From Thermoplasmatota archaeon (lineage in GTDB: Archaea; Thermoplasmatota; Penumbrarchaeia; Penumbrarchaeales; Penumbrarchaeaceae), in contig CBDDUX010000003.1 of assembly GCA_965234725.1 (NCBI GenBank), forward strand, positions 79,047 to 143,046: a DNA stretch of 64,000 bases, given 5' to 3'. This document shows, one piece after another, positions 22,698 to 49,175 of the stretch. The translations under genes and the position numbers were made by a program. Position 1 is the stretch's first letter; every line of letters starts with the position of its first letter. The notes below the pieces were generated by a model. It ran no database searches. It saw nothing but the letters and a program-made list of their open reading frames with translations, and was not told the DNA's origin.

Positions 22698-22765
22698 ACC
22701 AGGGAATGGTTCAATTCAGAGAAGCTATTGTTCCGAATACCGGACGGTCAGGCAAGGGATATATT

Positions 22766-24022
22766 ATGGGTATTATAGACTGGATCAGGGGAAGAAGGAA
22801 GAAACCTTCATCCGGATTACCCAGAGGTAAAGGTCCAGCTGTAGAAAGGAAACGGGGTAGAAAGGAGGAAATGGAACCCATTTTGGAAGAGCTGGAGATC
22901 GAAAGGATCCGCAACAGAGAACAGGAGAACAGGATACAAGAAATGGAACAGAGATTCAACTCTCTTCAATCAAGATGGGCCTCCATGTTGGAACATCAGC
23001 AGACCACTATGATCAAATTGATAGAAAAGGGAGATGAAGAGGCAGATCCTGAAGGTGTCGTTTCATCAGGAAAAAAGAGAAAAGGAAAGTCCTCCCAGAA
23101 AAAGGGAAGTTCTTCATCCATCTCCCGTTTTTCATCCCCTGTCCTTCCAGAAAAGAAGTTCGAGAATTTCGTGGTCGACGATTCAAACAGATTCCCCTAT
23201 CTTGCTTCGGAAGCTGTTGCTATTGGAAAAGGAAGAAAGTACAATCCTCTTTTCATTTTCGGACCGGTGGGAGTTGGAAAAACACATTTACTGCATTCTA
23301 TCGCCAACAGGATGCGTGAAAATAACGGCGACCTTAAGATACTCTATTCATCTACAGAAAGGTTCACTGATGAATTGATAAGGTACCTTGATTCCGATGA
23401 TATCAGGGGATTTAGGAATCTTTACCAGGAGGTCGATGTTCTCCTTGTCGATGATATTCAGATGTTATCAGGCAGAGAGGCGACCCAGAAGGAATTCTTT
23501 CACATGTTCAATTACCTATACAACTCCGGAAAACAGATCGTCCTTTGCTCTGACAGGCCTCCAAGCGATATCAAGGAGCTTGAAACCAGGCTCAGGTCAA
23601 GGTTCGAGGGAGGTCTGATAATCGACATCCAGGTTCCCACTTTCGAGGGAAGGAAGCAGATCCTCCTAAATCTATCTCAGATGGAAGGTTTCTCTATTTC
23701 ATCGGAGGTTCTGGATTATCTATCATTCTACCTTGATTCCTCAGTAAGGGAGCTGGAAGGTGGGTTCAACAGAGTGACAGCCTATGCTTCCCTAATGAAG
23801 GAACCAATTACGGTTAACCTGGTCAGGAAAGTATTGGAAGGGTCGCTACAGAGAAGGGAATCTGTTCGGAAGGAAGATGAAGCTCAAAAGGAAGACCACC
23901 GCAGGTATGCTGAAAGTGAAACACATCAGGAAGAAGGCCCATACGATGATCTAGACCTTGAGGAAGAGACCGATATGATCGAGGAGGAACTCCTTCAGGA
24001 ACTGAGGAAAAAACCCCAATGA
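22766..24022 (+). CDS. DnaA/Hda-family AAA+ ATPase (DnaA domain III) with N-terminal coiled coil, lacking domain IV
   Basis: FENFVV..SN, YNPLFIFGPVGVGKTHLL, DVLLVDDIQ, TQKEFFH.FN, SDRPP, RLRSRF.GGL, VRELEG; acidic tail in place of the DNA-binding domain. Confidence 0.9.
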   Translation: MGIIDWIRGRRKKPSSGLPRGKGPAVERKRGRKEEMEPILEELEIERIRNREQENRIQEMEQRFNSLQSRWASMLEHQQTTMIKLIEKGDEEADPEGVVSSGKKRKGKSSQKKGSSSSISRFSSPVLPEKKFENFVVDDSNRFPYLASEAVAIGKGRKYNPLFIFGPVGVGKTHLLHSIANRMRENNGDLKILYSSTERFTDELIRYLDSDDIRGFRNLYQEVDVLLVDDIQMLSGREATQKEFFHMFNYLYNSGKQIVLCSDRPPSDIKELETRLRSRFEGGLIIDIQVPTFEGRKQILLNLSQMEGFSISSEVLDYLSFYLDSSVRELEGGFNRVTAYASLMKEPITVNLVRKVLEGSLQRRESVRKEDEAQKEDHRRYAESETHQEEGPYDDLDLEEETDMIEEELLQELRKKPQ

Positions 24023-27842: not shown

Positions 27843-28316
27843 TCAGATCTTTGAAAGGTAACTGTGTTTTTTTCCCATCCTTCTTTTAATGAATTCCTTG
27901 TGTTCCATCATTTTGATCCTCTTTCCCTTCAATACACTTGGAAGATCGTTGATCTTTATACCTTCCTCTGTCTCAGATCTATTGATGTGCACAGGGTCTC
28001 CATGTTTCATTATGAGGATCGTATCAGGTCCATGGGGGACATAGAAGGAGATCTCTTTAAAATAGATACGTCTGTCCACAATGGTCCAGATCGGAAATCT
28101 GCGCGATCTGACAGTTATATGATCATTGCATACGACAACCCTATCTCCCAGGAAGGACCATATCACCAAATAGAGTATGGATGCCATTCCCACCAATGCC
28201 AGAGCTATACCATCAACTATCAGATTAAGGGGATAATGTAGGACCACACCAAAGACCATGATCATGATAAGAAAAATGGCAACTACCGAAAGGGAGATAG
28301 CCCTGGTCCTTTCCAT
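27843..28316 (-). CDS. Hypothetical membrane protein (2 TM + PH-like beta domain)
   Basis: 157-aa ORF with two hydrophobic helices; TATA-like element about 25 nt upstream. Confidence 0.65.
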   Translation of the reverse strand: MERTRAISLSVVAIFLIMIMVFGVVLHYPLNLIVDGIALALVGMASILYLVIWSFLGDRVVVCNDHITVRSRRFPIWTIVDRRIYFKEISFYVPHGPDTILIMKHGDPVHINRSETEEGIKINDLPSVLKGKRIKMMEHKEFIKRRMGKKHSYLSKI

Positions 28317-28371
28317 ATAACGGAATGATCCGGGACCGCTATATGTTTTTCCCGTATCTATCCCTTAATGT

Positions 28372-28671
28372 ATGAAAATTCATGAAAGCGGGTTGTAATC
28401 CTTTTTCATACACCCGCAAAGCAGTGTCTATAATTGACGATCTGTTATGCTGGGTTTCGAAGTCACATAACTTATGTGATTGGCGAGACCTTGAAATTGC
28501 TGAACCCTATCCAATCTCTCTGAATTTCAAGGCATGCACAATAGTGCTTTCAATTGACGCTCTATTGTTGCTATGGATCGAAATTCCGCATCATATCGAA
28601 TTGACGAAAGGAATTTACGAGCTCCTTTGAAAAAGGAGTGACTTACGAAAAAACCCGCTTATCATTTTCAT
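28372..28671. ncRNA. Candidate structured non-coding RNA or MITE-like element
   Basis: Terminal complementarity (ATGAAAAT/ATTTTCAT; AAGCGGGTT/AACCCGCTT), at least five internal hairpins, three AATTGACG motifs. Confidence 0.55.
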
Positions 28672-28711
28672 CCTATGTTGTGAGCATTTGACTCATGAGG
28701 GTTTTTAGTAT

Positions 28712-29443
28712 CTATGACATGATCTCCATCATGAATGCGTGGCCCTCTTCTCCATTTACCTTCAAGGTGACGATCCTCGAACCTTTTTCGGAACCAGTGT
28801 AGATCTCGACGATATTTCCAACGAAGACCTCTGACCTATAGCTGAGGAGTAGATCTGCGGATCTGTTGATCCCCCTACTATTCAATGAGAGTCCATCGAA
28901 ACTCCATCTGACATATTCTGTGTTGTTTACATGCCCATTCATGTCTATGGAACTTTCACAGACCTTGATCGTATCCACTAATTCCAAATTTGAAGGGGAA
29001 TTCTTTCTGGATATAGTGTCGAAATTCCTTCTGCCCTTGGAAGGAAAATTAAAATCAAGGTCCTCTGTTCTTATCGGTCTCTTATTCTTTATATCTAGGA
29101 CCATCCAAACCGATGTTGCCTTTAGTATTTCCTGATCATTCCTGTCAGTCAATGTGAATTCCCTGTAAGCTCTCAGATCATCAAATCCGGAAGGGATCGT
29201 GAAGAGAGTGCAGTTTTCGTTCCAGAGAGGCGATCGGTCCACTTTCATTCGAATATCAACAAGGACCCAGATCCGGCCGTTCTTGATCATCCAACCCATT
29301 CCCAATCCCATTTTCTCCGCATGATCTGAGGCAATTTCCTGCAGATGCTTCATGAGATCATGGATCCGCATCCTTCCATCAGGACCACATTCATAGGTTC
29401 TTGGTATAAGGTCACGTTCAAGGGCAGCTATCATGGTCATCAT
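28712..29443 (-). CDS. Acyl-ACP thioesterase family (double hotdog) protein
   Basis: R.YE..P.G, LQE.A..H, W+L, IDMNGHVNN.EY..W. Confidence 0.88.
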   Translation of the reverse strand: MMTMIAALERDLIPRTYECGPDGRMRIHDLMKHLQEIASDHAEKMGLGMGWMIKNGRIWVLVDIRMKVDRSPLWNENCTLFTIPSGFDDLRAYREFTLTDRNDQEILKATSVWMVLDIKNKRPIRTEDLDFNFPSKGRRNFDTISRKNSPSNLELVDTIKVCESSIDMNGHVNNTEYVRWSFDGLSLNSRGINRSADLLLSYRSEVFVGNIVEIYTGSEKGSRIVTLKVNGEEGHAFMMEIMS

Positions 29444-29557
29444 TCCTTTATACTCGGAAAATGAATATAATGATAGCATCCAACCATATTAATCGATGTG
29501 TGAGACATGGTAATGTTAAATAACCGCTATGGCTTTCAGGACGCTGGGTGGATGTTA

Positions 29558-40471: not shown

Positions 40472-41157
40472 AAATGACCCTTTACATTAATGAGATATTC
40501 ACATCTGTTCAGGGAGAAGGTATCCATACAGGCCTGGTTACCACCTTCATAAGGCTTGCAGGGTGCGATCTACGGTGTACCTGGTGTGACACACCATATT
40601 CTCTTTCCACTGAGGACGGCCTTCCCTTGTCTATTGAGAAGGTTATGATGGATACCATGACCTTTGGTTCATCCATTGTCTGCATAACGGGAGGAGAACC
40701 TCTTGTGCAGAAGGAGACGGTTTCCCTTGTGGAAAAACTGTTAAAAGAGGGATTTAAAACAGATATTGAGACAAATGGTGCCCAAGATGTATCCATCCTT
40801 CCTTTGAAAGAAAAAGGCCTTTTTCTTTCCGTTGATGTAAAGACACCTTCATCAGGAGAGTCCGGAAGTTTCCTTATGAAAAATATAGATAATATGAGGA
40901 AAGATGATCAATTGAAATTTATTATCAAGGATGTAATGGATCTGGATTTTACTTTTTCTTTTCTGCAAACATATCTACCTTCATGCAATATTATCCTTAC
41001 TCCATGTTCAAATGAAGGTGGAAAGGTCATCGTAGAGAGATTGATATCATTGCGTCGTGAGGAAATGGATGGGTCTTTCAAGAATGTACTCAATAGAATA
41101 AGAGTTATGATCCAGACACATAAGATTCTGTGGCCGTCGGATGATAGGGGTGTCTGA
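40468..41157 (+). CDS. queE: 7-carboxy-7-deazaguanine synthase (radical SAM)
   Basis: EIF.SVQGEG, FIRLAGCDLRCTWCDT, TGGEP, ETNG, QTHK. Confidence 0.95.
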   Translation: MKMTLYINEIFTSVQGEGIHTGLVTTFIRLAGCDLRCTWCDTPYSLSTEDGLPLSIEKVMMDTMTFGSSIVCITGGEPLVQKETVSLVEKLLKEGFKTDIETNGAQDVSILPLKEKGLFLSVDVKTPSSGESGSFLMKNIDNMRKDDQLKFIIKDVMDLDFTFSFLQTYLPSCNIILTPCSNEGGKVIVERLISLRREEMDGSFKNVLNRIRVMIQTHKILWPSDDRGV

Positions 41158-49091: not shown

Positions 49092-49175
49092 TGCAGGGAG
49101 AGGGATTCGAACCCACGAACCACTAAGGATCGGATCTTAAGTCCGACGCCGTTGGCCAAGCTAAGCTATCCCTGC
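49092..49175 (-). tRNA. tRNA-Leu (anticodon TAA), no intron, CCA not encoded
   Basis: GCAGGGA/TCCCTGC acceptor stem, TCGGA-CTTAAGA-TCCGA anticodon arm, long variable arm, GTTCGAAT T-loop; one T-T mismatch in the T stem. Confidence 0.93.

Follow-up and report, generated by a model that had tools for sequence, protein, structure and literature searches.

A lineage-restricted, modular and hairpin-rich interspersed repeat in Thermoplasmatota archaea, probably a non-autonomous mobile element

What kind of object is the intergenic, hairpin-dense stretch at positions 28372 to 28671 of the DNA analysed here, a piece of 64,000 nucleotides (nt) from a Thermoplasmatota archaeon (GenBank assembly GCA_965234725.1, contig CBDDUX010000003.1, positions 79,047 to 143,046 of the forward strand; in the following, the window)? 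A first reading made from the letters alone (the sequence-only reading) had described a non-coding element of ~300 nt with a closing stem, a series of inner stems and a loop motif, AATTGACG, present three times, and had proposed an undescribed structured RNA, such as a protein sponge or a conformational switch, with a non-autonomous mobile element as the third possibility offered. Our analysis favours this third possibility: the feature is probably one copy of a lineage-restricted, interspersed, modular and hairpin-rich repeat family, a non-autonomous mobile element comparable to the BOX repeats of pneumococci and the BIME repeats of enterobacteria, and not a single-copy gene for a non-coding RNA (ncRNA). 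Three observations support this reading: the genome itself carries multiple copies, the element recurs across one taxonomic family, and orthologous sites in a sister species lack it precisely. The unit is also larger than initially described: alignment to the other copies, together with an empty orthologous site in the sister species, sets its bounds at 28369..28706 on the + strand, 338 nt in all (TGTATGAAAAT ... CATGAGGGTTTTT), which makes it a long form of the repeat family.

Within the assembly that holds the window (G000; 3.54 Mb in 114 contigs, 97.65% complete), BLAST with the intergenic region gave 19 matches on 12 contigs, the pieces of the region being found in differing combinations. 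Profile searches of this genome and of loci from its relatives returned 40 matches for the 5' part (A) and 41 for the 3' part (D), forming 36 A-to-D pairs in 14 genomes, one of which is cut by a contig start; this leaves 35 complete copies. Their lengths fall into three classes (188-194 nt, n=17; 211-253 nt, n=10; 298-553 nt, n=8), the shortest of which represents the family core with five covarying helices, P1-P5. Copies are often found at contig ends in G000 (C100:1-384 and C28:287-365, where C stands for contig) and in the related genome G001; the repeat probably breaks assemblies, with copy numbers underestimated as a result.

Outside its own genome, the element was detected by BLAST in 15 of the 23 other genomes of the same taxonomic family (f1), with one weak match among 17 genomes outside it. 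The covariance model R1 extended this to 22 of the 23, with 26 matches in G000, 13, 21, 30 and 47 in the other genomes of its genus and 1-10 in genomes of the other f1 genera. Among 13 genomes from the other families of the class, R1 matched in one (G028, family f5; 8 matches, best E 1.3e-12; for example C86:70613-70763), an observation that points to an older origin or to transfer. An exact-pattern scan covering one genome per prokaryotic species found 10 stretches, eight of them in records labelled as Thermoplasmata, Thermoplasmatales or Thermoplasmatota archaeon and all eight carrying both termini; the two bacterial stretches possess neither terminus and were rejected as chance matches. The pattern was found in none of the viral contigs scanned, blastn gave no match in the plasmid and phage collections, and metagenome contigs yielded two pattern stretches, of which one (L074) is a true copy by R1 and the other fell short of 1e-20.

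Further evidence comes from the sister species, G004. At the site orthologous to the window copy (G004:C22), ~3 nt replace the 338 nt of the element and the two neighbouring genes adjoin each other: the query aligns to successive segments over positions 1-524 (88% identity) and 864-1622 (86%), and in the junction alignment no stretch of 2 nt or longer is duplicated. A direct repeat of 8 nt, GTATCTAT, does flank the element (28354-28361 and 28708-28715), with its left copy 7 nt off the element's end; chance alone predicts one repeat of this kind in 391 nt, and a target duplication is improbable here. The second empty site concerns the G000 copy on C31, which is absent from G004:C10: there, an unbroken T10 tract comes after a terminator-like hairpin, whilst the G000 site shows the same hairpin followed by ATTT, the element and TTT, so that any duplication is inseparable from the T-tract. 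Two further G000 copies (C69 and C27) are common to both species, and two others (C63 and C26) probably lack counterparts in a further genome, G003, where the intergenic regions are too diverged to align. The flanks of eight copies from relatives gave no two-sided BLAST match against G000, and hence no further empty sites. The rule put forward in the sequence-only reading, under which a multi-copy element with a target-site duplication (TSD) would be a MITE (miniature inverted-repeat transposable element) and a single-copy element with covariation an ncRNA, does not fit what was found: multiple copies and covariation occur together here, with no TSD in evidence.

String search and an inverted-repeat scan recovered every stem named in the sequence-only reading, and the fold surpasses that of shuffled sequences by a wide margin on both strands. 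For the + strand of the 300-nt stretch the minimum free energy (MFE) is -93.6 kcal/mol as opposed to -63.3 +/- 4.9 in shuffles (z -6.18; 0/200 dinucleotide shuffles as good), and for the - strand z is -5.91. RNAalifold analysis of 17 short forms from 10 genomes gave five helical regions, P1-P5 (counted as six helices in the pair statistics): P2 carries a CCC/GGG extension, P3 a conserved bulged A, and P5 lies inside P4, a stem with an A-run and CCC on one side and GGG and the terminal T-run on the other. Aligning 35 distinct full-length copies to the covariance model, we found standard pairs in 94.7% of 1417 cells and both-side (compensatory) changes in 30 of 42 pairs; the covariation score of 0.241 compares with 0.098 +/- 0.006 after shuffling (0/500 reach it) and with at most 0.048 when partners were slid by 1-3 columns, statistics that overstate the covariation to some degree, the alignment being fitted to the model and the copies being related. 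The support extends over all helices: P1 is paired in 97.1% of cells with 5/8 pairs compensatory, P2 (helices 2 and 3) in 88.9% and 94.5% (3/3 and 6/8), P3 (helix 4) in 98.7% (7/11) and P4/P5 (helices 5 and 6) in 94.0% and 86.2% (5/7 and 4/5).

Covariation reaches both extreme ends. Nucleotide 1 varies (G 19, T 10 and A 6 of 35) together with the last nucleotide of P1 (A..T, G..C, T..A), and the terminal GGGTTTTT does so with the A-run block (ACTC/GAGT, ACCT/AGGT, ATCC/GGAT); both ends are thus part of the element and internally paired. The proposed closing stem stood up in part. Its complementarity is real, with ATGAAAAT / ATTTTCAT paired in 87.1% of cells across the family, but it competes with P1, and only 2/8 of its pairs are compensatory, essentially through one clade-wide change from A-U to G-C; its 9-bp part (AAGCGGGTT / AACCCGCTT) is specific to copies of the window's genus. 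Across the family, P1 is therefore better supported than the closing stem. Both partners of the 5' arm (ATGAARAT) follow its A-to-G change, which makes an alternative pairing of this arm possible. Folding energies of the window copy do not decide between the two, since the family helices alone (-66.2 kcal/mol) and the closing-stem variant (-69.0) are close to each other and both lie well above the MFE of -100.5. The parts of the window copy are collected in Table 1.

Table 1. Coordinates of the parts of the window copy and of its two flanking genes.
Feature	Position in window	Strand	Arms and remarks
P1, 5' terminal hairpin with variable loop	28369..28412	+	arms 28369-28378 / 28403-28412; 10-nt perfect inverted repeat
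Closing-stem 5' arms, alternative to P1	28372..28394	+	ATGAAAAT 28372-28379; AAGCGGGTT 28386-28394
Closing-stem 3' partners	28664-28671; 28652-28660	+	ATTTTCAT 28664-28671; AACCCGCTT 28652-28660
P2 hairpin	28413..28454	+	CCC 28413-15 / GGG 28452-54; GCAAAGCAG 28416-24 / CTGTTATGC 28442-50
P3, long-range stem	28458..28647	+	CGAAGTCAC 28458-66 / GTGACTT-A-CG 28638-47; conserved bulged A
Nested cassette, four hairpins i-iv	28489..28637	+	in P3 loop, just after TTGACG-type motif
Cassette hairpin i	28489-98 / 28523-32	+	CCTTGAAATT 28489 / AATTTCAAGG 28523
Cassette hairpin ii	28536-44 / 28562-71	+	motif at 28552-59; ACAATAGTGC 28538 / GCTCTATTGT 28559
Cassette hairpin iii	28579-87 / 28610-19	+	motif at 28599-606; bulged A; AAATTCC / GGAATTT
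Cassette hairpin iv	28622-28 / 28632-38	+	CTCCTTT 28622 / AAAGGAG 28632
3' domain	28649..28706	+	P4 = AAAAACCC 28649-56 / GGGTTTTT 28699-706
Flanking gene, acyl-ACP thioesterase	28712..29479	-	Pfam PF01643 + PF20791; convergent with element
Flanking gene, 157-aa hydrophobic, membrane-like protein	27843..28316	-	from list of open reading frames; no Pfam match

The window copy follows the family model, with a single A.A mismatch in P2. Inside P3 are a local hairpin (28463-70 / 28472-79; TCACATAA 28463 / TTATGTGA 28472), a motif variant, TTGGCG, and the nested cassette, and P4 encloses the second ATTTTCAT as well as the small hairpin P5 (TGAG 28681-84 / CTCA 28692-95). The T-run of its 3' domain counts 5 letters on the + strand and 6 on the - strand. 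Between the 3' end of the element and the thioesterase stop codon there are 5 nt, and between its 5' end and the start of the 157-aa gene 52 nt.

Comparison with the short forms reveals how the long ones are built. Where the P3 arms of short forms are separated only by a loop of ~22 nt, the window copy contains one extra block of 147-149 nt between the loop motif (..TTGGCGAGA) and the P3 3' arm. With 103.7 bits, the short-form covariance model recognises a second full unit in 28488-28706, and P2 and hairpin ii form a 31-nt direct repeat with 71% identity; hairpins i, ii and iii are thus paralogues of P1, P2 and P3. That such hairpin cassettes are gained or lost precisely is shown by the orthologous pair on C27: the copy measures 190 nt in G000 and 344 nt in G004 (G004:C9), the flanks are 93% identical and the difference is exactly the cassette, which is close to that of the window copy, with the P3 arms keeping their locus-specific sequence. 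Another optional module, 64 nt long and with two hairpins (...GGGTCTTGAC...CTGTTTTCTGC...), sits between P2 and P3 and explains the 253-nt class; it was seen in G000:C69:12539-12791 and in the 253-nt copies of other genomes (L027, L030, L031, L042). G000 also holds tandem arrays of hairpin triads, like i, ii and iii, that lack the A and D ends (C77:41383-41795, C60:17967-18337, C114:2935-3369, C38 about 40590-40900, C26:6450-6628 and C27:61616-61766), and a P3-like hairpin on C77 likewise contains a four-hairpin cassette.

The loop motif was reported correctly: AATTGACG is present at 28432 (28432-28439, in the P2 loop), 28552 and 28599, three copies within 175 nt and each in a hairpin loop. 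Over the whole window it was found 4 times with 1.88 expected, and 10/100 shuffles reach 4; the count alone is not significant, and what is unusual about the motif is its clustering in loops. In nearly all copies the P2 and P3 loops carry the shorter word YGACG directly before the 3' arm, and modules ii and iii show the same arrangement, giving 1-6 such words per copy on the + strand and 0-1 on the other. Genome-wide, short-motif counts were not above expectation, and a scan for hairpins bearing the motif proved too permissive (13-16% of the occurrences of any hexamer pass), so that the covariance model was used instead.

Conserved loops within a covarying fold are what one would expect from the main rival explanation, a family of genes for trans-acting structured ncRNAs that would be transcribed from nucleotide 1 to the terminal U-run and act as sponges or scaffolds displaying 1-6 YGACG loops, or as a switch. 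The strong covariation in five helices and the conservation of the motif in P2, P3 and the extra modules speak for it, as do the transcript-like ends (the first nucleotide is a purine in 25/35 copies, with U5 or more at the end), the two complementary sites of the 5' arm, both tracking its A-to-G change, and the fact that the orthologous copy on C69 is more conserved than its flanks. The + strand is favoured also: its RNA fold is the more stable in 32/35 copies, by a mean of 7.0 kcal/mol (Wilcoxon p = 1e-5, the copies not being independent), which favours a single-stranded + strand species, RNA and single-stranded DNA (ssDNA) alike being compatible with the modelled energies. Against genes of this kind stands the lack of a conserved promoter position: no positional A/T-rich box was found at -24 to -30, the archaeal TATA location, in the 35 copies (A+T 0.49-0.63, approximately the level of other upstream positions), and many copies abut a GC-rich terminator hairpin that leaves a promoter no room. 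Matches that number from 1 to 47 per genome and a precise presence or absence between sister species likewise argue against ncRNA genes, and the alternative pairing of the 5' arm rests on one clade-wide change. We consequently regard this explanation as unlikely; a motif that recurs in the loops and a 5' arm with a choice of two partners leave the sponge and switch ideas alive, but they do not show them.

As to known RNAs, the element was rightly called structured and undescribed. At gathering thresholds Rfam gave no match in the region, SRP (signal recognition particle) RNA, RNase P, introns and riboswitches included, the sole match in the window being a tRNA at 49092-49175; with E values up to 10, the interval 28200-28850 returned only CRISPR-DR34 (15.1 bits against a cut-off of 35) and no intron family, and ARAGORN found neither tRNA nor transfer-messenger RNA in the region.

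Where the copies are placed brings a second rival into view. TT directly precedes the element in 32/35 copies and TTT in 24/35 (background TT 7.4%), usually as part of an oligo-T tract that follows a gene or a terminator hairpin; T is found at each of positions +1 to +3 after it in 24-30 of 35 copies, and about ten upstream flanks, counted by eye, contain a GC-rich hairpin just before the T's. Several of the triad arrays without A and D ends likewise begin directly behind a terminator hairpin with T9 or a tRNA gene with T7. An A-run of 5-7, that is, a T-run on the - strand, is present in 35/35 copies, and a T-run of at least 5 at the 3' junction in 30/35. In a crude orientation analysis (open reading frames (ORFs) of at least 100 aa; 17 copies with usable flanks), 13/17 copies share the orientation of their 5'-side ORF, and 9/17 have a convergent ORF on the 3' side. 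Oligo-T tracts suffice for termination in archaea, and an element of this composition, sitting behind genes or between convergent ones, could have been recruited by the host to act in cis, as a portable bidirectional transcription stop or as a 3'-end stabiliser or insulator between genes, with hairpins that would shield the mRNAs upstream and an A6...T5+ tail that would halt RNA polymerase arriving from either direction; the close spacing to the stop codon of the convergent thioesterase gene in the window would agree with such a role. However, copies have been inserted where a hairpin plus T10 terminator already existed, and no stop signal was needed there; the empty sites of the sister species function without the element; and termination leaves ~140 nt of conserved P1-P3 structure and the loop motifs unexplained. 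A scan for sigma-70 promoters and terminators found 0 terminator-like sites in the region, albeit with bacterial criteria unsuited to an archaeon. Recruitment as a cis element is, in our view, decidedly unlikely as the explanation of the family.

A third rival would make the element a derivative of a known single-strand transposon, either a REP/BIME unit with its RAYT (REP-associated tyrosine transposase), a palindrome-associated element (PATE) of IS200/IS605 type or an orphan TnpB guide RNA. Reminiscent of such systems are the bulged base and the flanks conserved in the hairpins, the strand-specific folding and the insertion, without duplication, 3' of a short T-rich word, with T also at the right end. 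The enzymes, however, are missing: Y1 transposase (PF01797) was found in 0/24 f1 genomes, G000 included, by a search that was positive in 6/14 control genomes, TnpB (PF07282) was not above cut-off in G000, and Rfam gave no match. A descent from these transposons is accordingly very improbable. The weakest rival, a small protein encoded by the ATG-initiated 82-aa ORF at 28382-28630 (+), can practically be dismissed: the frame does cover most of the region, contrary to the earlier statement that no ORF does so credibly, but it is broken in the 98%-identical C31 copy of G000 and in the 86%-identical G004 copy, has no Pfam match, is largely missing from the 188-194-nt forms, which are without the cassette that it reads through, and accumulates substitutions that follow base-pairing and not codons, so that we judge it to be spurious, an accident of the long repeat.

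Several observations weigh against a mobile element and have to be set beside the evidence for one. Only two empty sites were found, at which insertion is indistinguishable from precise deletion and no duplication supports transposition. The window copy itself breaks the placement rule, as its 5' flank is TAA and not TT and as it lies antisense to both neighbours, a pair of minus-strand genes. The C69 copy shared by G000 and G004 is 94.5% identical within the element and 85-86% in the 300-nt flanks, which suggests selection or gene conversion and not a neutral parasite. The strand asymmetry is modest, with 43 G.U against 27 A.C among the paired cells, too weak to carry an argument alone, and the caveat on the shuffle statistics given above applies here too. 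Finally, the search for a mobilising partner was negative: in addition to the results for Y1 transposase and TnpB, the IS110 (1), DDE_Tnp_1 (3) and intron loci of G000 showed no R1 match and no terminal words shared with the element, and among the ORFs flanking 81 loci no gene family recurs beside copies, only overlapping or orthologous places forming clusters.

Spread driven by a reverse transcriptase (RT) was considered as well. An RT is encoded in 6/24 f1 genomes but is absent from G001 (95% complete), the genome with the most matches of any (47), and RT-driven spread is unsupported at present. G000 itself contains one group II intron of ~1.9 kb (G000:C47; L105 about 700-2640) with a 468-aa RT-maturase ORF (PF00078, PF08388) and Rfam matches to D1-D4 of 129.5 and 54.1 bits; its GUGUG 5' end is found 4 nt after a perfect hairpin, a IIC-like placement.

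Taking the repeat to be a non-autonomous mobile element, we infer the following course for its mobilisation and function. The element would be moved in trans as a folded single-stranded + strand intermediate, either ssDNA or RNA, by an enzyme that would prefer oligo-T tracts. After insertion, its only transcription would come from read-through of the upstream gene, with the element as a passenger, and an oligo-T stop would be restored in both directions by its A6...T5+ tail. The YGACG loops could serve as recognition sites of the mobilising protein or of a binding protein, with the bulged A and the conserved feet of the hairpins as further features for protein recognition. A bolder version would see here a new archaeal mobile element, promoter-less and hairpin-ended, that moves as a folded single strand to oligo-T terminator tracts, be it through SINE-like retro-insertion of a U-tailed transcript or through a single-strand recombinase that reads YGACG loops and hairpins with a bulge; further cassettes would be inserted at the place indicated by the loop motif, and the 3' ends of genes would gain common protein-binding hairpins, amounting to a mobile post-transcriptional regulon. 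This full picture is speculative, and we give it only a small chance of being correct as a whole. If it were true, the 3' ends of many unrelated genes would share protein-binding RNA hairpins.

Of the repeat families known from bacteria, the pneumococcal BOX elements come closest in design. These consist of boxA - boxB(n) - boxC modules with extensive secondary structure, are restricted to a narrow lineage and lack a transposase; spurious ORFs arise in large BOX copies, and BOX probably acts on co-transcribed genes (PMC3049150). The likeness is one of design only: fixed 5' and 3' parts enclose 0 to several inserted cassettes, giving 188 to 553 nt in the archaeal family, and the 82-aa ORF would correspond to the spurious ORFs reported there for large copies. 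The two occur in different domains of life, and a Streptococcus repeat would not be expected to share sequence with one of an archaeon; in contrast to BOX, the internal modules of the archaeal family are hairpin triads nested in a hairpin loop, oligo-T tracts behind genes are preferred and both extreme ends are base-paired within the element. With REP/BIME repeats (PMC2817692, PMC3184786), the family shares the mosaic of extragenic hairpin units behind genes, the differing numbers of modules and the triad arrays, a structure conserved more than the sequence and a probable recognition as single strand. It differs from them in that neither a RAYT nor a Y1 gene was found in the 24 genomes, and in its 190-nt core, its conserved loop motifs and the lack of alternating orientation. 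Group IIC introns (PMC1702495) are likewise mobile, RNA-structured and placed directly behind terminator hairpins or T-tracts. Ribozyme domains (D1-D4, DV/DVI), however, were not detected in the element with a library that scores the G000 intron at 129.5 bits, its core of 190 nt compares with roughly 1.9 kb for the intron of G000, and the distribution of RT genes (6 of the 24 f1 genomes, none in the copy-richest) does not match that of the repeat.

Two other comparisons are instructive. Sponges of the CsrB/RsmZ type have several hairpins with the same loop motif, are encoded by single-copy genes with promoters of their own and have a known partner protein; the element shares the repeated motif in hairpin loops, but it is multi-copy, without a promoter box at -24 to -30 and without a known partner. 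Archaeal MITEs, for example those of Sulfolobus, are non-autonomous short intergenic repeats with terminal inverted repeats and target duplications that match a resident insertion sequence (IS). As a short, non-autonomous repeat of archaeal intergenic regions the element resembles them; unlike them, it has no inverted repeats at its extreme ends: the first 10 nt find their partner either at nt 35-44 (P1) or in an 8-nt copy located ~35 nt before the 3' end, and the 3' end itself is paired to the internal A-run. Neither is there a parent IS with the same termini in G000, and a duplication is lacking at the window site and inseparable from the T-tract at the T10 site. Compared with an IS200/IS605 PATE or a TnpB guide RNA, the difference lies in the absence of a TnpA partner from the 24 f1 genomes and of a TnpB above cut-off from G000. 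By their defining features, the element belongs to none of the BOX-, REP/BIME- and group IIC-type families; it is nearest to BOX and REP/BIME in design and to group IIC introns in its choice of target.

A small structured interspersed repeat is a known kind of object, and in bacteria such repeats, among them REP, BOX and Correia elements, influence transcription, the stability of mRNA and rearrangements of the genome; to our knowledge, few have been described in archaea and, going by the literature searched, none in Thermoplasmatota. No description of the element was found in the literature on Thermoplasmata MITEs or on archaeal intergenic hairpin and mosaic repeats. Three of its features appear to be new: an archaeal host combined with an association with terminator T-tracts, the internal pairing of both ends, and the nesting of its triads beside a conserved loop motif. 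With a clean structural model, abundant covariation, a sharp target in the oligo-T archaeal terminator, precise turnover of cassettes and no recognisable transposase, the family offers a tractable case for how 'orphan' repeats move. At a practical level, the repeat probably causes assembly breaks, it leads to spurious calls of small ORFs in metagenome-assembled genomes, and it should be masked in annotation.

Two minor observations were made along the way. At G000:C2:676-855 (L108 1-180), five tandem units of ~35 nt are located upstream of an ORF for a DDE transposase, close to a tRNA gene. Within the window, a 438-aa ORF at 22706-24022 (+) has a strong match to the bacterial DnaA ATPase domain (PF00308, 195 bits); AAA+ proteins of the DnaA type are not the usual initiators of archaea.

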